From positions 1 through 42,969 of IMG/VR virus record IMGVR_UViG_3300044726_000065: 42,969 bases of DNA, one strand, 5' to 3'. The translations under genes were made by a program, and so were the position numbers. The notes below the pieces were generated by a model. That model worked only from the letters and a program-made list of their open reading frames with translations, searched no databases and had not been told where the DNA came from. Positions 3,384-42,969 of the stretch are shown here, in pieces (the first letter of the stretch is position 1; every line of letters starts with the position of its first letter). Origin of the DNA: a virus.

Positions 3384-3949
3384 TTAAACCCGTAAGCTGT
3401 ATTTATTTTTCCCTTCGCACACTTGCAAATATTAGGTCTATTAAAACCAAGCTCCCTTTGAACATCATTAATACAATCCCATTTTCTTATAAAGTTACCC
3501 GTTGAATCCTTTTGTATAATAGAAATTGCTGTTGGGCTTTCCTTGCCAACTTGTTTTAAATAGAAATAATCTGGAGCTTTTTTTGACCCTATTTTATAAG
3601 CGTGAAGTATGTTTTCTGATTGCGTACACCACTCTAAATTTTCAACATTATTATTTGATGGGTTGCCGTCAATGTGATTTATAAATGGTTTGCTTTCTGT
3701 GTTGTCTATAAAAGCAATAGCGACTAATCTATGAACTGGGAAGAACTTGCCAAAGCCATACTTATGCAAACACACCTTACAATACCCTGTTTTACCCGGC
3801 TTTGCAGAAATCAACTTGCCCTTTCTGTGTATGGTTATATTATTTCTGATAGGTGATTTGACTTCCCTTCTCACCGATCTAATATTACCAAAATTACTGA
3901 CCTGATAAAAGCCCTCGTAATCTTTAACGTCTTTCCATGTTTCTATCAT
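3368..3949 (-). CDS. HNH homing endonuclease (NUMOD4 + HNH_3 type)
   Basis: NUMOD4-like [24 protein letters not shown] core [29 protein letters not shown]-terminal [19 protein letters not shown] module. Free-standing between two sugar-modification genes. Confidence 0.85.
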
Positions 3950-4560
3950 AATAGTGTTTTTCTAATGTATAACGCATCCCCGAAACCTTTCCTTTTCCAC
4001 TTCGTTTCAACCCTTCTAAAATCTGTTAGGTAATTATCCAAGTCCTCAACCATTGCACAATTCTCGTAAAGCTCTTCCCTGTTTACTTCGGTATAGATGT
4101 AATCAATGTGCTTTAATGTTTCGGTTGCGCCTTTTAATACTTCATGCTCGTAGCCTTGCACATCAAGCATTAAAAAGTTGCAGTTAGTTAATGCGACATT
4201 GTCCAACATAATCATCAATGCCCTTTCTACATCTTTAAATTCTATATCTGGGTAGTATAATAAATGTTGCTTTGGTTTAAGTATTGAATTACTTTGCCCG
4301 TTATTTTTTGTTTCTACATTAAGATAAGCCTCAGTACAAGATGCCCCTAACGCAAAGTTGTGTGTGTATATTCTATCAAAATCCCAAGACTTACTTAATA
4401 GTTTTTCATAACTATCCTCACATGGTTCAAACAAATGCAATTCGCCATCCGTTACACTTAACAATAAATCAACCTCCTCTCCCCAATGCGCACCAGCTTG
4501 GATAACTCCAGTTATCTTCATTCCATATTTAGCAATTAACTTTTCTAACTTAAGGAGCAT
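3946..4560 (-). CDS. FkbM-family SAM-dependent methyltransferase
   Basis: 204 aa. [11 protein letters not shown] (SAM loop-like) and [17 protein letters not shown] match the Methyltransf_21/FkbM pattern. Confidence 0.7.
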
Positions 4561-36071: not shown

Positions 36072-37301
36072 TTAGCTACCACCAAATTCACCGTGAATTA
36101 TCGCATTTGGTCTAAGAACATTAAGCTCTTCAAAGCACTCGACTTTCACCGTCACCAAATTACGTCTGAAGTTATCATTGTCCTCGTAAGAAAAACTAAC
36201 ATTCAGAGACTCGGTTTCTACACGCTCAACATAATCGTTATCCCACAAAAGGAACTCGCCATCATCAGCAAACGAAGCACCGAGGATCGGAGTACCGGCA
36301 ATGTTCACATCGTTACCCATTGGGAAGTTACCAGGGTAACTGTAACCACTATTTGCATTACGGCCTGACTTTAACAGATGCGCCCATTGAGGCCAACTAA
36401 CAACACCATAGTCAGCGTTATAATCTGCATCCCTTTGGTTAGCGATCCAGAACAGAATTTCCTCTGCATCATTAGCCGGCCCACCATTAGCAACAGTAGG
36501 AGTAGTTGTTACACCTGTAGCTGCTGAAACCATCGCATCATACAAGTAATCGTTTTCTTTCTTGTAGAAATCACGAAGTAACATTCTTGGAAGAGTGTTA
36601 TTCAAGAAAGGAAGATTATACATGAACTGCTTAGATATTAAAGCCCAACCGGCGATATATTTAGAAACAGTTTTAACCTCTGTGAATGCGTAGTCTATCT
36701 GTGTCTTCAATTCACCTTCAGTCTGAACACTTATTGAACCAGTTGTACCTGTCTCTCTGTAGGTCACAAATGAACCTGTAGGGGATTGGGTAGTATTCAA
36801 AATGTCTCTCATGTTCCATTTCTGAGCGGGTACGATCCCTTGTCTTGGATTGTAAGAGTGTTGAACATCACCTGTGATTGCATTGGTAGAAAGCATTGTT
36901 GCTACTTTCAAACTCATCGACAAATTCAAGTTTCTATCATTTGACATCTTAACAATATCATCTTCTTTCTTAGCAAAGATTCCTGTATTGAGCATATCCT
37001 TCCACCCAATTTCAAAAGTCGGTTTTTCTGTTTTTCTCTTATCCTGTTCGGAGATAAAGTTGTCGATAAACGTTTGGTTTTTCTGAAGATTCTCGTTAAG
37101 AGTATCAACATCTTTTTTCAGTTGCCCGATCAATTCAATGTCTTTCTTTGGAGCCAAAGCTGCTATCTGTTGGTTTATTGTCTCAACAGAAAGGACAATA
37201 CCTTGAAGTTGCTCTTTAGTAGCAAGCTCAAGGCTTTCTTTTGTTGCCTTCAACATACTTTGTATTTGTTGTTGAAGACTTAAATTCAATTCGTCTGCCA
37301 T
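36072..37301 (-). CDS. Major capsid protein, HK97 fold, with N-terminal coiled-coil delta-like domain
   Basis: Start taken at ATG 37301 (MADELNLSLQQQIQ...). About 100 aa of coiled coil is followed by a capsid-like body. Located directly after the HK97-type protease gene. The tracked 459-aa ORF has a spurious 50-aa extension overlapping the protease gene. Confidence 0.8.
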   Translation of the reverse strand: MADELNLSLQQQIQSMLKATKESLELATKEQLQGIVLSVETINQQIAALAPKKDIELIGQLKKDVDTLNENLQKNQTFIDNFISEQDKRKTEKPTFEIGWKDMLNTGIFAKKEDDIVKMSNDRNLNLSMSLKVATMLSTNAITGDVQHSYNPRQGIVPAQKWNMRDILNTTQSPTGSFVTYRETGTTGSISVQTEGELKTQIDYAFTEVKTVSKYIAGWALISKQFMYNLPFLNNTLPRMLLRDFYKKENDYLYDAMVSAATGVTTTPTVANGGPANDAEEILFWIANQRDADYNADYGVVSWPQWAHLLKSGRNANSGYSYPGNFPMGNDVNIAGTPILGASFADDGEFLLWDNDYVERVETESLNVSFSYEDNDNFRRNLVTVKVECFEELNVLRPNAIIHGEFGGS

Positions 37302-37311
37302 TGTTAAAAAT

Positions 37312-38157
37312 TTACAGTTTAAAAAATAGTTTACTTCCTGCTGCAAACATTGCATTACACGAGTGGCACTTACAAAAACCTTTTTCTGCCTGTGTGTTGT
37401 ATGTCTGCTTAAAACAGCTTGGACAAGCGATAGTTTTTGTGAACGTATCAATGTCCTTTTTAACTACTTCAACCGTACCGTTAACAATGGAGACATCCGA
37501 TTGCTTTGATGTTAGTTCCGTGATAGTTTGCAAAAGTTGTTTATTGTATATTAAAAGCGTCTCTACAATTTCATCGCTTGCTTTTGTGTCACGACAAAAC
37601 TTTTCGATAGCTTCTGATTTATTTAATAGTTTATTTATCTCAACTGATTTCATTCCCGTCATTGGAGTATTTGAATTAGCACCCCATGCAGTTAAAGATG
37701 AACCTTCCCAAAGTTTCAACTCAGTCAATTCCCTTCTAACCATCCCTTCTTTATAGTCTTCCCATGAAGTGACCTGATTAAAGGTTTTAGTTTGATAACC
37801 GATAGAATGTTCATTTATCAAATTCGATTCAACCATTTTCACAAAGTCAATTCCTAAAGCATGATTACCTAATTTAGATTCATAGTAAAGACCTTTGTCA
37901 TCCTCTTTCAGCATTGTAATAACTCCTAAAGGCTGCGAAGGATCGTGATTAAGCAAATGTTTTATTCTTGGCTTTGCTGACTGTGGCCCTGTGGCTTTTA
38001 TCGTTTTATCAAAAGCCCCTTTCTTAATTACGTCCCCGTCACTATCCAAAGAATCAAAACTTGCAAAGTATCCTGTTACAATTCCTTTCTTACCGTCAAC
38101 ATCTTTAAAGTTGATCTCAGGAATCGTAAAGTCTTTATATGAATAAATATCTTTCAT
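37312..38157 (-). CDS. Prohead serine protease (HK97/S78 family) with C-terminal 4-Cys zinc-ribbon-like tail
   Basis: GIVTGYFASFDSLDSDGDVIKKGAFDKTI...IKHLLNHDPSQPLGVI...EHSIGY matches the HK97 protease pattern. The C-terminus is CPSC-x14-CKCHSC. Confidence 0.75.
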   Translation of the reverse strand: MKDIYSYKDFTIPEINFKDVDGKKGIVTGYFASFDSLDSDGDVIKKGAFDKTIKATGPQSAKPRIKHLLNHDPSQPLGVITMLKEDDKGLYYESKLGNHALGIDFVKMVESNLINEHSIGYQTKTFNQVTSWEDYKEGMVRRELTELKLWEGSSLTAWGANSNTPMTGMKSVEINKLLNKSEAIEKFCRDTKASDEIVETLLIYNKQLLQTITELTSKQSDVSIVNGTVEVVKKDIDTFTKTIACPSCFKQTYNTQAEKGFCKCHSCNAMFAAGSKLFFKL

Positions 38158-38188: not shown

Positions 38189-38848
38189 TTATGGGTAAAC
38201 CTCTATCTGGACTAAAATTTTTGCTCCTACATCGCTTAAATCAACATTGCTTCCGTCTGAGTTTTGAATAACGGTTATATCTACAAAATTGCCGCCCCCG
38301 CTTACTGTCATCTGGTATGAAAAATCCAATGGTGTGCTGCCGTAGAAGGGCAGCCAACAAGAAAGCCCACTTGCAAATGGCGGAACGGCTGTTTTGTTTA
38401 ATGTAAAAGCACCAGCAAGTGTCCCTCTATAAACACCGACTCCGGTACGTGTCCATACAATAGCCCCTATTGTGTTTATAAACTCCGCCTCAACAACCGG
38501 GGCATCCGTTCCCGATTGCGATAAATCAGCTTTATAAACCAAAGGCGCAGAACCATCCCCGCCGGGGGTACCTGGAGCCAATCCCGGAAACATCGCTGTT
38601 ATCTGTGTTTCAAAATCATCCTGCGAATCCATCGGAGTGCCATCAAAATCTATTTCCGTAATTAGGATGTTTAAAAACTCAATTGTATTAATGAAGAATG
38701 AAATTCTATTTTCATCTTCTGGTAAACTCCAGCTTATCGCTGTTGATGTATTATGAAAAGACGCAACAGTATTCTCCACTTGCAAAGAAGTGTTATCTGT
38801 ATGAATCAAGTTTATAACATCTCCGTTTGTTCTGAATGAATAAGTCAT
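38189..38848 (-). CDS. Hypothetical head-module protein
   Basis: 219-aa ORF between the MuF-like and protease genes. No motif recognised. Confidence 0.5.
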   Translation of the reverse strand: MTYSFRTNGDVINLIHTDNTSLQVENTVASFHNTSTAISWSLPEDENRISFFINTIEFLNILITEIDFDGTPMDSQDDFETQITAMFPGLAPGTPGGDGSAPLVYKADLSQSGTDAPVVEAEFINTIGAIVWTRTGVGVYRGTLAGAFTLNKTAVPPFASGLSCWLPFYGSTPLDFSYQMTVSGGGNFVDITVIQNSDGSNVDLSDVGAKILVQIEVYP

Positions 38849-40497
38849 TAGATTGTTACGACCCTCCCCTGTCTGATTTGATTAGGAAATATTACGCTTG
38901 TACTTCTTCTTTTAGGAATTAACCGCCCCCTTGAATCTCTTTTAGGTTTAAGCGACATTTGACACCGGCAGTTGGAAATGTGGATGCCATTTGCTAATAT
39001 TGCACCTGTTAACGTACTAAAATCATAAACATGACCAGAAAAATCACGTTCAATAACTTCGGCGATCTCGTCAAAAGATACACTTCCGGCATTTCCATAA
39101 AGCAACTTTCCGATGAAATTGGAATCGCCCGGGACACTATTAAGAATAGATTTATATCTGCTGGAATTCCAATTCGTGGACGTTCCGATGCTGAAAAACT
39201 TAAATGGTCTCAAATGAGTATCAGCAAGCGTAAGAGACAAGTTGCCGCTGCTCATAAAGCTACTAATGGAAGAAGTGTCTCTACCAGCGAAAGAGTTTTG
39301 AGAGCAAATGCTGCGCACAAAAATCCTTTCAAGATGGGAAGTTTTGAGGCTGAACTTGCCAATATCCTGAACCAACATTTCGTCGCTAAACTCCAATTCC
39401 CAATTCATGTCTATAACATCGATATTGCTATCCCCGAACTTAGAATCGCCATTGAAGTCCAAACCAATGGACATTCTCTTTTGAGAACCGAAAGAATCAT
39501 TAAGCGTTCTAAATACATTTGCGGCCAAAACTGGTTCCTTCTCTATGTAATCATCAACAGGGATAAGGCCAATGCTGTTAGCCTTTTTAATATTGCTCAA
39601 TACATAATCGCCTTTTCTAATGTCCTTAATAGGGATAGTTCCCCTTTGGGTAAATACGGTATGATTGGGCGTGAGGGTAAGTCTTTTGCCGGAACGTGTT
39701 ACGATTTCAAAGACTTGACCAGAGTATTTTAAACGTTGCGCCCCTATCATTTGCCCTTCAACCAATGTATCACCCGGGAAACAGTTAATTGTGCTTTCTG
39801 CGCTGGCTCTTGGATCACCGGGACTTCTTAACCTGTCACCGTTTCTTGGGTCAATAAACACATCTTCAAAGTCTATAACTGTCCCGTCAAGTCCAATGTG
39901 CGAAGCATGGTCTTTAGGATTCACCCCTCTTGTTCTGTTATCATGTACCGCAATCCACTCCTTTTGCATTTGATACTCGTAAGTTTCACCAGCCGCTAAC
40001 GTACCCGCATTTGTCGCAGCGTTGACCTCTGTCCTTACTATTCGTGCCGCTTGCATTTCGCTAAACTGAGAACCTTCTAAAGCCCTCACGGTTTCATCAA
40101 CTCCCCATCCTTTACTTATTGATTCATTGAGTACGGATAATAAAAATTCCCTTGTAGTTCTGTTTACATTAAAAGTGAGGTTTTGAATCAGGTGAGTCCT
40201 TAAGTAATTTAATATCCAATTCACCCACTCAGAATTAAACCCAAAGGCACCGCCTGACTTTCGTTCCTGTTGTTTTAATTCCCTCGTAGTCTTATTGGCG
40301 TACCTCACCCCCACAGTTGAATAAAGTTGTTGTATAGTAGCAGTTAGTTCTGGATTGGTCAAATCATTACTTAGTGCAGCAATAGCCGCATTAACTCCTA
40401 AGTTTTCGACAATAGAAATAGTTTCATCGAATTTCTTTTTGATGGTCTTGTGAACCTTCGGGAAGAACAATGTTTCGTATTTCTTGTTTAGATTCAT
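38848..40497 (-). CDS. Head morphogenesis protein (SPP1 gp7/Mu F-like) interrupted by an intein
   Basis: The exteins carry the MuF pattern (ARIVRTEVNAATNAG...HIGLDGTVI...; ...STIN | CRCQ, where NCRC is the conserved family motif). Residues 239..509 form a Hint-type intein. Confidence 0.8.
   Translation of the reverse strand: MNLNKKYETLFFPKVHKTIKKKFDETISIVENLGVNAAIAALSNDLTNPELTATIQQLYSTVGVRYANKTTRELKQQERKSGGAFGFNSEWVNWILNYLRTHLIQNLTFNVNRTTREFLLSVLNESISKGWGVDETVRALEGSQFSEMQAARIVRTEVNAATNAGTLAAGETYEYQMQKEWIAVHDNRTRGVNPKDHASHIGLDGTVIDFEDVFIDPRNGDRLRSPGDPRASAESTINCFPGDTLVEGQMIGAQRLKYSGQVFEIVTRSGKRLTLTPNHTVFTQRGTIPIKDIRKGDYVLSNIKKANSIGLIPVDDYIEKEPVLAANVFRTLNDSFGSQKRMSIGLDFNGDSKFGDSNIDVIDMNWELEFSDEMLVQDIGKFSLKTSHLERIFVRSICSQNSFAGRDTSSISSFMSSGNLSLTLADTHLRPFKFFSIGTSTNWNSSRYKSILNSVPGDSNFIGKLLYGNAGSVSFDEIAEVIERDFSGHVYDFSTLTGAILANGIHISNCRCQMSLKPKRDSRGRLIPKRRSTSVIFPNQIRQGRVVTI
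38971..39783 (-). mobile_element. Intein (271 aa) in the MuF-like gene
   Basis: Block A CFPGDTLVEG (Cys1 codon 39783..39781). Block B TPNHTVFT. Block F GHVYDFSTL. Block G ANGIHISN, followed by +1 Cys (Asn codon 38973..38971). Inserted exactly in the NCRC motif. The central 130 or so aa lack LAGLIDADG or HNH motifs. Confidence 0.8.
39031..39732 (+). CDS. Antisense ORF inside the intein: HTH plus Vsr/DUF559-like PD-(D/E)XK endonuclease (putative homing endonuclease)
   Basis: 233 aa, lying wholly within the intein on the opposite strand. Contains HTH-like SIKQLSDEIGIARDTIKNRFISAGIPIR, basic NUMOD3-like repeats, and a core SFEAELANILNQHFVAKLQFPIHVYNIDIAIPELRIAIEVQTNGH...KRSKYI...NWFLLYV that fits the E...Q...Y-x-(I/V)-D...IEV-x(3-4)-H nuclease pattern. 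Confidence 0.6.
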   Translation: MTRKITFNNFGDLVKRYTSGISIKQLSDEIGIARDTIKNRFISAGIPIRGRSDAEKLKWSQMSISKRKRQVAAAHKATNGRSVSTSERVLRANAAHKNPFKMGSFEAELANILNQHFVAKLQFPIHVYNIDIAIPELRIAIEVQTNGHSLLRTERIIKRSKYICGQNWFLLYVIINRDKANAVSLFNIAQYIIAFSNVLNRDSSPLGKYGMIGREGKSFAGTCYDFKDLTRVF

Positions 40498-40556: not shown

Positions 40557-42068
40557 TCAGGACAAGGTTTCTTTGGCATAGGAAACTCGTTCTTTGACAT
40601 TTTTTCCATTTGGCTTTCCGTTATCTCCATCTTTGCCGTTTCCGGTTGCATTTCCTGTACCATTGTCTTGGTTTAATGCGTTATCAACTTCTGTTGCCTG
40701 GTAATCACTCAAAGGCGTTCTATCTTGTTTAACCCATGCCTCATCAGCTTCAGGCTCCGGCCTTCCCTCCATGTTAATCATTTCCCTCTGTTCATTAGGT
40801 GTAATCATCATTATGCCGTTAGTAGCCTCAACTATCTCTTTAGCATTAGGCATTAACTCAGGGAAACAATCAGTTTCAAAATCACAGTAAATATTCTGAT
40901 CCTTAAACCCCCAGTCTGTCTGTAGTTTCCAGTTTAAAGCGTTTCTACGGCTTATTAAGAGCGGCATTACAGCCCCTAATATCAAAGCCTTCTGTGCTTC
41001 GATTACGTTGTTATAAGTCTTCTGTGTAAGCCCTAAAAGCTCAGGAGGGACATCGTAAGCATTACAAATCATTATCGCATCCCACTTCTCACTTTCTATT
41101 ATCCCTAATTCAACCGGAGTGGAACCTATCGGCATTCCCCCCATCTTAATACCGCTTATTGCAACCTTACCTTTATTCTCCGGCCCTGAATATTCCTCAT
41201 TCCATTTCGTCTTTACCGCCTTTGCCTGCTCCATTCCTTCCACCGGATCCAGTCTATCATCGTCCGTCCAAAGAATAAATTCAGCTCCACCGTTTTGAAA
41301 CTTAGCAGCCGAAGCATCAACCGCAGAATTGTTTCTGTTTAGTACTTTAAGAAATGGTTTCAAAGGTGAGAACCCGTATAACTGTTCACCGTTAATGTTC
41401 CAATTCGGGTTAACGTATTTTTCATGTAAGACTTCTTCCCTTGTGAATTGCTTCTGCCAAGTGTACAACTCGTAAGCTGTAGGTCTTGCAGGGAAATCGT
41501 TAGTGACTTTGATGTTTATTAGGTGAGCCGGTAAACTCCAAAGGGCATTTGGAACACCGGCATTTGCACCGCCTTTGAGCATTTCACCCCACTCAAAATA
41601 ATCACCTGTTAATAGTTTATAAAGGAAAAGCGACCTTTGATGATCGCTAAAAGTATCTTCACTATTTGCGTATTTAAGTAAACCTTTTAGTTTGGTAGCT
41701 TGTGAATTAAAAGAAGTTAACGGTTCAACCGCTTCAGCTTTTAACTGTAATGCCTTTTTAATGTCTTTATACGTTGCATCCTTGCGGGACATTAAACGCT
41801 GTGATTGCTTTAGTTTGGTTTCATCCACAACCTTATAAAGCCCCCATTCAGGTAAAATAGCCTTATTAAGAATCTTGTTTAAAACAGCGTAAACAATTGC
41901 ATTCTTATTATACCCTTCTTGGATGTAGTTCTGCTTATTGTCCGCAGGCGTAACTAATCTTCCGTTCTGAACAAGGTATTTTATAGCTGTATGAATAGCC
42001 GGATCTCTCTTTAGCTGAATCCGTTCAACTAACTCTTTGCCTAATATCCACTTTTGAAATAAGTTCAT
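40557..42068 (-). CDS. Portal protein
   Basis: 503-aa ORF between the terL and MuF-like genes, with a disordered Gly/Asn/Asp-rich C-terminus. Call based on size and synteny. Confidence 0.75.
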   Translation of the reverse strand: MNLFQKWILGKELVERIQLKRDPAIHTAIKYLVQNGRLVTPADNKQNYIQEGYNKNAIVYAVLNKILNKAILPEWGLYKVVDETKLKQSQRLMSRKDATYKDIKKALQLKAEAVEPLTSFNSQATKLKGLLKYANSEDTFSDHQRSLFLYKLLTGDYFEWGEMLKGGANAGVPNALWSLPAHLINIKVTNDFPARPTAYELYTWQKQFTREEVLHEKYVNPNWNINGEQLYGFSPLKPFLKVLNRNNSAVDASAAKFQNGGAEFILWTDDDRLDPVEGMEQAKAVKTKWNEEYSGPENKGKVAISGIKMGGMPIGSTPVELGIIESEKWDAIMICNAYDVPPELLGLTQKTYNNVIEAQKALILGAVMPLLISRRNALNWKLQTDWGFKDQNIYCDFETDCFPELMPNAKEIVEATNGIMMITPNEQREMINMEGRPEPEADEAWVKQDRTPLSDYQATEVDNALNQDNGTGNATGNGKDGDNGKPNGKNVKERVSYAKETLS

Positions 42069-42077
42069 TTAATTTAT

Positions 42078-42969
42078 TTAAGCGACTGCCACGATAAATT
42101 CACTTAATTGAAAATACATTCCCATGATTAACGTATCTAAATAGTCCGGTGACTTACCGTTTAACTGTTCCTTCATGTCATCCTTCCCTATTAATCTTTT
42201 CCTGCTTTCGTCACTATCCACATTCTTTGCTTTTAATACTCCCATTTCTTTAATTATCTGCTCCTTTTGAATAGGTGAACAAATGATCTTAATTTCCCTT
42301 TTGTTCACCTTCTCTGCTAACTTATAACCGCATTCAGCTTTAAGATTCGCAAATTCCTTCTTATGCATCGCTTGCGCCCCGCCGTGAAACTCTTTTATTC
42401 CTTTCAAGTAACTTTCCAGGTAAGCCCCCATTCCATCACTATCAACTATTGTGTGACTATGTGAAACCCCTTCAGAGGTCATTACCTGCTTAACATCGGT
42501 CTCAATACTTTTACCGTCTGATTTACCCTTATCAACTACAAACCGGCATACAAGGCCATCCCAAGCCGCTACAATGAACTTATCACGTCCTTGCATTGCT
42601 AAGTCTGAGCTAATCCTTTTCTTCCCTGTTCGTTCTACATGGTCATTTGTAAACATATCCATGATAGCGTCAAACTCACATAAAACACTTGGATCGTCTG
42701 AATAATCCCAGTTTCCCCGGTAAAGCCTTTCTTTCTCCGGCCCTTCAGGCATATTCTTTAAGCTCTCCAAACTTGACTTAGGATAATCCGGATTGTCCCA
42801 TGCAAAAGCCTGTACAAACTTCCTTCGATCTAACAACTCGTTTCTTTGGTGTGCCTTGTAGAACTCACTATAAGCCCAATTCTTTGTCGGGTTTGTAGTA
42901 TAGAGAATCTTAGGGATTAAGTTGTATTCGGTCAGTTTGTACCTTATCCTGACCTTTAGAATATCCTTT
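42078..42969 (-). CDS. terL: Terminase large subunit, C-terminal nuclease part (continues from 1..558 across the junction)
   Basis: The frame stays open through 42836 to the window end, where it enters the duplicated 127 bp. ...NWAYSEFYKAHQRNELLDRRKFVQAFAWDNP joins the two halves. Directly upstream of the portal gene. Confidence 0.85.
   Translation of the reverse strand, partial: KDILKVRIRYKLTEYNLIPKILYTTNPTKNWAYSEFYKAHQRNELLDRRKFVQAFAWDNPDYPKSSLESLKNMPEGPEKERLYRGNWDYSDDPSVLCEFDAIMDMFTNDHVERTGKKRISSDLAMQGRDKFIVAAWDGLVCRFVVDKGKSDGKSIETDVKQVMTSEGVSHSHTIVDSDGMGAYLESYLKGIKEFHGGAQAMHKKEFANLKAECGYKLAEKVNKREIKIICSPIQKEQIIKEMGVLKAKNVDSDESRKRLIGKDDMKEQLNGKSPDYLDTLIMGMYFQLSEFIVAVA
42843..42969. repeat. 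Terminal direct repeat, copy 2 (identical to 1..127)
   Basis: Exact 127-bp identity with the window start. Confidence 0.95.

Follow-up and report, generated by a model that had tools for sequence, protein, structure and literature searches.

An intein in a phage head-morphogenesis gene carries a putative homing endonuclease gene on its opposite strand

Canonical bifunctional inteins, such as PI-SceI and the VMA inteins, carry an in-frame LAGLIDADG or HNH homing-endonuclease domain (PMC8966425). In fractured genes, a free-standing Vsr-like or GIY-YIG endonuclease gene lies between the halves of a split intein, in the same orientation as a host gene that is broken into two open reading frames (ORFs), and coding sequences overlap by 6-69 bp (Dassa et al. 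2009, PMC2677866). The EDxHD-type endonuclease I-Bth0305I couples a DNA-binding region at its N-terminus to a Vsr-like catalytic domain at its C-terminus (Taylor et al. 2011, PMC3239194; structure 3R3P), and is encoded in sense orientation within a group I intron. Long antisense overlapping genes have also been described in Pseudomonas aeruginosa and enterohaemorrhagic Escherichia coli, mostly as lineage-restricted novel ORFs without known folds (PMC8850804, PMC9927249). Here we analyze a 271-aa intein in the MuF-type head-morphogenesis gene of the viral record IMGVR_UViG_3300044726_000065 from IMG/VR (42,969 nucleotides; this whole stretch is hereafter the window), and a 233-aa ORF located on the other strand of this same intein (Table 1). 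We estimate at about 80% the probability that the homing endonuclease of a mobile intein is here made as a protein of its own, from a gene on the other strand that lies entirely within the intein coding sequence, and we rate the arrangement as a new genetic architecture for mobile inteins that have a homing endonuclease. In full-text literature outside subscription journals, we found no account of a contiguous intein holding an antisense endonuclease gene, and a prior report is possible.

As in canonical bifunctional inteins, endonuclease-coding DNA interrupts the Hint domain at the loop that separates block B from block F, the insertion falls in a conserved site of an essential gene, and alleles with and without the intein coexist; unlike in these inteins, the endonuclease would be a separate opposite-strand polypeptide of Vsr/DUF559 fold, and the in-frame insert is non-conserved and apparently unfolded. 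Fractured genes share with this locus the setting in phage genes, a Hint element invaded by a Vsr-superfamily endonuclease gene of the free-standing type with its own translation signals, and a coding overlap with intein parts, but here the gene is antisense, the intein is contiguous, and the overlap spans the whole 702-nt gene. Compared to I-Bth0305I, the predicted protein has the same bipartite architecture, finds in it its best structural match, and includes a conserved helix-1 Glu, a metal-binding Asp, and an acidic residue at the position of Vsr Phe62; however, there is no match at the sequence level, the EDxHD His and last Asp are not conserved family-wide, and the sequence is closer to DUF559 and MTES_1575. 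Antisense endonuclease genes in group I introns are likewise nested within a self-splicing element, yet the sense strand of the intron is a non-coding RNA without dual protein coding, whereas here both strands are ORFs with parts under selection. Finally, as for the bacterial antisense overlapping genes, an antisense ORF of several hundred nucleotides sits inside an annotated gene and is discarded by annotation pipelines. In contrast to these genes, it belongs to an old nuclease superfamily, with approximately 2,400 clusters in phages of many phyla, and the corresponding segment of the outer gene appears to be a passenger.

The host ORF encodes a 549-aa precursor with matches to Pfam Phage_Mu_F (residues 122-218, 37.9 bits for a cut-off of 29.6), Intein_splicing (36.0 bits for a cut-off of 35.8), and Hint. 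An initial annotation of this DNA, made from the sequence alone, had proposed an intein at positions 38971-39783 in the NCRC motif of a MuF-like gene, and both the Pfam matches and the alignment to homologues support exactly this span, from Cys239 (CFPGDTLVEG) to Asn509 (...GIHISN), immediately followed by CRC. Several features of a class 1 intein are present, namely a Cys nucleophile (Cys1, CFPGDTLVEG), the TxxH motif of block B (TPNH), block F (GHVYDFS), and a terminal Ser-Asn, with the block G Asn followed by Cys+1. The insertion site is the conserved INC/RC of the MuF protein, and intein-less homologues (P0174, P0175, and P0178) read ...STINC/RCQM... across an exact 271-aa gap. Among these, P0174 (304 aa) is 94% identical to the window host protein over the exteins, and its DNA reads ...ACAATTAAC TGT CGT TGC... 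across the insertion site. Given that the closest host homologues precisely lack the insert while others carry it (P0173, P0176, P0177, P0179, P0207, and P0209), this is, as judged from sequence, a genuine intein with presence/absence polymorphism among close relatives. It is also probably splicing-competent, since its catalytic blocks are under minus-frame purifying selection and its host is an essential head-module gene. We also considered whether MuF homologues of 427-484 aa may contain mini-inteins; these proteins are instead intein-less and have C-terminal extensions.

The 233-aa plus-strand ORF is located where the initial annotation had placed it, wholly inside the intein, and is codon-aligned with the intein frame, so that the overlap is the entire 702-nt gene. 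This overlap reaches functional intein blocks at both ends: positions 39592..39732 of the intein N-terminal region lie opposite the C-terminal ~47 aa of the plus ORF, and the C-terminal region (38971..39081) holds, on the other strand, the start codon and upstream leader of the plus ORF. In this codon-aligned configuration, each frame can be open only if the other is devoid of TTA, CTA, and TCA codons. In the host gene, such codons occur 15 times among the first 223 codons and 4 times among the last 53 but never in codons 257-495, while codon 256 is a TTA complementary to the TAA stop of the plus ORF. Based on window codon usage, a stretch of 233 host codons would be free of these codons with a probability of about 2e-7 when computed per codon, and of about 1e-11 once the Leu and Ser content is taken into account, and the longest run free of these codons among the 29 other window genes is 112 codons. 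Reciprocally, none of the 16 Leu codons of the plus ORF is TTA or CTA and none of its 19 Ser codons is TCA, for window backgrounds of 55% and 28%, respectively (P of about 5e-9). With stop-creating codons absent at these probabilities on both strands, both frames are kept open non-randomly in the 37% GC sequence of the window, in line with the earlier remark that both frames are open although antisense stops are frequent in AT-rich DNA.

Codon position 3 of the plus frame is codon position 1 of the minus frame, which allows selection on each frame to be assessed separately. When sequences were aligned by their plus product, changes synonymous only in the plus frame outnumbered those synonymous only in the minus frame across the helix-turn-helix (HTH) region (plus residues 8-60; 3972 vs 1029), residues 61-102 (2155 vs 471), and the nuclease core (residues 103-185; 3404 vs 1659), with the reverse for plus residues 201-233, opposite the intein N-terminal blocks (710 vs 2605). 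The same analysis in an alignment built on the minus product, which favors the alternative of a non-coding plus ORF, used the N-extein as a control. There, the minus/plus ratio was 3.1 for the N-extein, 2.1-7.8 for intein residues 1-60, and 2.7-8.2 for residues 241-271, as opposed to 0.09-0.56 over most of residues 81-240, with a value of ~1 at residues 101-120 (LDFNGD / AIEVQ motif); selection was mixed at residues 61-80, 101-120, and 221-240. A less saturated comparison, between the window and its close relative L031, yielded 31 plus-synonymous and 6 minus-synonymous changes over intein residues 81-220, vs 8 and 58 in the N-extein. In AT-rich loci, GC content by codon position followed GC1>GC2>GC3 in the plus frame over the intein middle and in the minus frame at the ends, while GC-rich loci showed a small GC3 reversal (0.69 vs 0.64), to which we gave no weight. 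Because the excess of synonymous changes flips strand along the overlap in both alignments, the middle of the intein appears to evolve as the antisense of a protein-coding gene, and both ends as an intein. Third-position variation, which the initial annotation had singled out as informative, thus tracks the plus frame over the middle of the intein and the minus frame at its splicing ends, and, as in an antisense overlapping pair, both frames are open and each is under purifying selection.

The predicted structure of the plus product (AlphaFold2, mean predicted local distance difference test (pLDDT) of 92.4) is consistent with the HTH and Vsr/DUF559-like core first proposed from sequence. It includes an N-terminal module of three helices (10-18, 23-30, and 34-43), a helical region (residues 51-97), and a core with elements H104-113, E120-125, E128-134, E139-144, H154-165, and E169-174. 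When searching the PDB with Foldseek, the top match was the catalytic domain of I-Bth0305I (3R3P; probability 1.0, TM score of 0.69 normalized to target), Vsr (1CW0) and DUF559 (3HRL) were within the top six, and 1VSR was also matched, with target-normalized TM scores of 0.52-0.71 for these four structures. Across 34 sequences, D131 is invariant and E106 and E142 are kept in at least 90%; these acidic residues, one each on helix 1, strand 2, and strand 3, match the E, D, and E of 3HRL in the alignment. A profile of the same 34 sequences matched 3HRL among PDB sequences with E=1.7e-5, pairing the conserved Glu, Asp, Glu, and Arg, and Vsr with E=0.64, but did not find 3R3P even at E<=10, so that the similarity to the latter is structural. 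Pfam MTES_1575 was matched by seven of ten sampled relatives (down to 6e-8, at an identical location in the core) and DUF559, weakly, by several, while HTH_7 and HTH_58 matches were weak for the window protein, with HTH_58 reaching 1e-10 in multi-repeat relatives. Hence, the nuclease relationship is detectable through relatives and profiles, since single-sequence searches yielded weak HTH matches. Regarding the EDxHD motif, the E and D are conserved and a His follows strand 3 in the window copy (H148) and many other members (GGNWH); this His is not kept in all members, and no conserved final Asp was found, although R159 is conserved nearby. The assignment as a nuclease thus rests on sub-threshold profile matches and a confident predicted fold, from which the protein is predicted to be a divergent branch of the Vsr/DUF559 superfamily, outside MTES_1575 and DUF559 as defined in Pfam. 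We filed it as a probable functional counterpart of EDxHD-type homing endonucleases that does not belong to the EDxHD family.

On the minus strand, the 549-aa precursor had no match to LAGLIDADG, HNH, or any other nuclease family in Pfam or PHROG, as anticipated in the initial annotation, and no in-frame nuclease domain was found between the splicing halves. In the AlphaFold2 model of the 271-aa intein, pLDDT was 70-87 in the splicing blocks (approximately residues 20-60 and 240-250) and 22-30 in residues 65-234, which makes the non-folding stretch ~170 aa long rather than the ~130 aa first estimated. This low pLDDT agrees with the absence of both minus-frame selection and a domain match in the same region. 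The simplest reading is that the intein middle is a tolerated and probably unstructured passenger at the canonical endonuclease loop, stop-free and not conserved as a protein.

The start of the plus ORF also appears tied to the intein sequence. Its ATG and the CAT codon that encodes the conserved block F His are reverse complements, and among 16 loci with this His, 13 use CAT (yielding ATG) and 3 use CAC (yielding GTG). In GC-rich loci, the complement of the V-Y-D-L-Q codons and the His reads CTGGAGGTCGTACAC directly followed by ATG, which places GGAGG eight bases upstream of the start, and the block F Leu codon is CTC in 17 of 18 loci, compared to a background of 0.37 in the same genes. The window copy has AAAATCATAAAC directly upstream of its ATG, and the window's own genes are largely devoid of Shine-Dalgarno (SD) sequences. 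Nearly all long ORFs of the window are on the minus strand, and most of those of at least 150 aa have no upstream SD. This points to a possibly Bacteroidota-like host in which initiation is not dependent on SD sequences. A terminator-like hairpin (GTCCAAACCAATGGAC, then a T-rich run) was noted at 39457..39472 (+), inside the plus ORF at the EVQTNGH codons; such hairpins were not more frequent than in shuffled controls, and it probably occurs by chance.

The same arrangement was found repeatedly. A word-indexed protein search recovered 2 homologues, both antisense in an intein ORF ending in ...SNCRC (at 35% and 66% GC), a poor yield attributable to gene callers rarely calling the endonuclease ORF, and a DNA-level scan of viral contigs added 27 loci. 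In all 29 viral loci, the plus ORF is intact and the codon-aligned intein frame is open, with inteins mostly of ~265-290 aa and two of ~320-335 aa. For 91 further loci, derived from bacterial genomes, metagenomes, and two GenBank phages, the plus ORF is intact in 88 and the intein frame open in 90, while the two other antisense frames contain on average 6.3 and 12.5 stops. An antisense frame riddled with stops, which would have spoken against the first interpretation, is thus not seen among homologues. Overall, the intein frame is uninterrupted in 119 of 120 loci spanning 35-69% GC, including ~20 loci of 35-49% GC in which 4-15 stops are expected, and across 85 non-redundant loci the overlaps contain 3 stop-creating host codons for 336 expected using each locus's own extein as control. 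All loci have the intein at the same N/CRC site of MuF or portal-MuF proteins, and among the loci examined the endonuclease gene was found only inside this intein, at this one site.

The few exceptions fit the model. In L046, a single base differs from the near-identical L045, changing a plus-frame ATA (Ile) to CTA (Leu) and creating a TAG in the intein frame; L046 may be a defective variant or a sequencing error, and the pair illustrates the forbidden-codon constraint. L086 and L092 have stops in the endonuclease frame and an open intein frame, a decay that is expected if the endonuclease, but not the host gene, can be lost. An exhaustive hidden Markov model search extended the family to 2,368 clusters (50% identity) at E<=1e-3, of which 360 at E<=1e-30. 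Members are mostly ~235 aa, and some include one to three extra N-terminal HTH repeats. These multi-repeat members reach 285-400 aa, e.g., in Aaphi23 (L033, 2189..3205), L024, L027, P0009, and P0046; the extra repeats make the intein insert longer to the same extent, and no stop interrupts the antisense frame across them. Taken together, the computational checks support the initial suggestion of an antisense-nested homing endonuclease gene with the intein frame held open: the arrangement itself stands, while both its reach into functional intein blocks and the size of the family had been underestimated.

GenBank carriers include Aaphi23, Salmonella Jerseyviruses, and Pseudomonas, Klebsiella, Vibrio, Gordonia, Rhodococcus, and Mycobacterium phages; the window locus itself had no blastn match among GenBank phages. 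Across 148 GenBank phage match rows, the endonuclease gene is never annotated, and the only feature under the match is the host head gene. The antisense ORF is for instance intact and unannotated in Aaphi23 and BPS11Q3. In metagenomes, calls of the endonuclease come almost exclusively from contigs <2.5 kb, which truncate the host gene, and on the 47-kb contig L031 the intact ORF (3808..4512, minus strand) is not called. Protein databases hence under-represent this family because gene callers miss the endonuclease ORF.

Several observations weigh against an antisense-encoded homing endonuclease. The window copy alone yielded weak HTH matches and no nuclease match in Pfam, PHROGs, or the PDB; no Pfam nuclease model reached its gathering score (best MTES_1575 score of 33.1 for 38.2 bits, and best DUF559 score of 18.7 for 20.6 bits); and no Foldseek PDB match of the plus product reached E<=1e-3. 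No sigma-70-like promoter was found on the right strand upstream of the plus ORF in the window or in Salmonella phage BPS11Q3. AlphaFold2 inputs were of uneven depth (34 sequences for the plus product and 7 for the intein), and because of this shallower intein alignment the low pLDDT of the intein middle is supportive, not decisive. Finally, relatives were sampled with the endonuclease as bait, so that inteins at the same site without an endonuclease would be missed.

The plus ORF could be a non-coding shadow of the in-frame intein middle, itself the real protein: the codon-aligned antisense frame generally has the fewest stops, long shadow ORFs are common in GC-rich DNA, which makes up most loci, and some minus-frame motifs are conserved (LDFNGD/DLHGD). 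However, plus-synonymous changes dominate the intein middle even in the minus-built alignment, both frames are open in the low-GC loci despite the number of stops expected there, the SD and start codon are conserved, and it is the plus product that is predicted to fold as a nuclease with profile matches, whereas the minus middle has low pLDDT and no domain match. We thus rejected this explanation, which we regard as extremely improbable. We likewise rejected, as highly improbable, a scenario in which the endonuclease is real, MuF is made as two trans-spliced pieces, and the open minus frame is incidental. Such a functionally split intein would have precedents in the Vsr-like free-standing genes located between split-intein halves in phage metagenomes (PMC2677866), and translation through 170 unstructured residues could be inefficient. 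Yet the minus frame is contiguous in all but one locus, AT-rich ones included, that exception being a one-base variant of an otherwise identical contig; the window plus ORF fully avoids TTA, CTA, and TCA; no internal stop-and-restart arrangement was seen; and fractured genes carry their endonuclease in the same orientation rather than antisense.

An expressed antisense protein with a role other than homing, i.e., a domesticated DNA-binding regulator, a regulator acting through antisense transcription, or an exclusion nuclease, is unlikely, although less easily dismissed. Conservation is highest in the DNA-binding part (HTH and RGRSDAEKLKW region), the HTH module is repeated in some members, and the position of the Vsr general-base His is not conserved family-wide. 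Against this, the acidic triad E106/D131/E142 is invariant or nearly so, the gene was found only in the MuF-site intein, and the element is present or absent among near-identical hosts, with occasional decay of the endonuclease frame. Such polymorphism and occasional decay are the usual signs of a homing cycle, which the exclusive association with one site also indirectly suggests.

In the mobile-intein model that we favor, the late head operon on the minus strand would yield the MuF precursor, with translation reading through the antisense of the endonuclease gene and adding ~170 unstructured residues at the loop where inteins canonically harbor their endonuclease, between Hint blocks B and F. 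After folding of the two Hint halves, splicing would connect ...INC with RC... and set free the mature 278-aa MuF. The plus strand would encode the 233-aa HTH and Vsr/DUF559-type PD-(D/E)XK nuclease, using the complement of the block F His codon as start and, in SD-using hosts, the complement of the Y-D-L-Q codons as ribosome-binding site. In co-infections or prophages, this enzyme would cleave MuF alleles devoid of the intein, close to the INCRC-coding site, and recombinational repair would copy intein and endonuclease together. We infer plus-strand transcription and translation, nuclease activity and its target site, and splicing competence from sequence features. As to its origin, a free-standing endonuclease gene may plausibly have inserted antisense into the loop of a mini-intein in GC-rich DNA, whose aligned antisense frame is poor in stops, before the ORF ends were extended into Hint-coding sequence. 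More broadly, we consider it likely that a large, cross-phylum class of mobile inteins spreads by means of a trans-acting, antisense-encoded endonuclease, with a stop-free passenger as the intein middle, a start codon and ribosome-binding site borrowed from the complement of block F, and a C-terminal tail borrowed from the complement of the sequence near block B.

Table 1. Location of the host gene, intein, and antisense-nested ORF features in the window
Feature	Positions	Strand	Basis
MuF-type head-morphogenesis gene, 549-aa precursor with intein	38848..40497	-	ORF; Pfam Phage_Mu_F; PHROG head morphogenesis
N-extein, residues 1-238, ending ...AESTIN	39784..40497	-	Alignment with intein-less P0174, P0175, P0178
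Class 1 intein, 271 aa, precursor residues 239-509	38971..39783	-	Pfam Intein_splicing and Hint; exact absence in close homologues
Intein N-terminal splicing region, blocks A-B, minus frame conserved	39592..39783	-	Minus/plus ratios 2.1-7.8
In-frame intein middle, residues 65-234, antisense translation of the putative endonuclease gene	39082..39591	-	pLDDT; minus/plus synonymous ratios
Intein C-terminal splicing region, blocks F-G	38971..39081	-	Minus/plus ratios 2.7-8.2
C-extein (CRCQMSLKPKRD...), residues 510-549 and stop	38848..38970	-	Alignment with intein-less alleles
Antisense-nested gene, 233-aa HTH and Vsr/DUF559-like putative homing endonuclease	39031..39732	+	ORF; homologues; AlphaFold2; fold matches; plus-frame selection
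ATG start of the putative endonuclease	39031..39033	+	Reverse complement of CAT, conserved block F His codon (intein H251, GHVYD)
Predicted N-terminal three-helix HTH DNA-binding module, plus residues 10-43	39058..39159	+	AlphaFold2 helices 10-18, 23-30, 34-43
Predicted nuclease core, plus residues 104-201, alpha-beta-beta-beta-alpha-beta	39340..39633	+	Conservation; 3HRL alignment; Foldseek
Near-invariant residues E106, D131, E142	39346..39348, 39421..39423, 39454..39456	+	Conservation

The MuF gene is part of a head module on the minus strand, together with a portal gene (40557..42068) and a head-maturation protease gene (37312..38157). Three other ORFs of this module, at 38189..38848, 36072..37451, and 42078..42836 on the minus strand (219, 459, and 252 aa, respectively), did not match any PHROG at E<=1e-5; of these, the 459-aa ORF occupies the place expected for the major capsid protein and, as listed with a TTG start, overlaps the protease gene by ~140 nt. 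In other loci, portal-MuF fusions of 1,000-1,500 aa are the intein hosts (L009, L010, L011, L024, and L030), and the host protein of Mycobacterium phage Sejanus is annotated as "capsid maturation protease"; across these different fusion proteins, the MuF domain and the intein site move together. A 0.8-kb intein presence/absence island was previously reported in the minor head protein of a Mu-like phage from cryoconite metagenomes (Bellas et al. 2020, PMC7468147). Since both size and host gene match, this island may belong to the same family as the window element, seen as a population polymorphism.

If confirmed, this arrangement would represent a systematic blind spot of gene callers and, among the antisense gene pairs of phages in which a long (0.7 kb) gene is fully embedded, the one with the best support and the widest distribution. 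Prokaryotic antisense overlapping genes lack uncontested examples, and the endonuclease-intein pair offers an unusually clean case of antisense dual coding, with a known fold, >100 independent loci, and a selected strand that switches along the sequence, which can be tested in cultured phages including Aaphi23, Salmonella Jerseyviruses, and Gordonia and Pseudomonas phages. It also implies that inteins would tolerate ~170 residues of essentially arbitrary sequence at the endonuclease loop, a property useful for intein engineering, and the enzymes themselves may be new site-specific nucleases, possibly of use as reagents. For mobile inteins, antisense insertion would constitute a third route of entry for free-standing endonucleases, beside in-frame fusion and gene fracture, one that keeps the host gene whole without fusing two proteins. 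It thus bears on the origin of mobile inteins, and on the proposed path leading from a free-standing endonuclease to a fractured gene and then to a fused intein.

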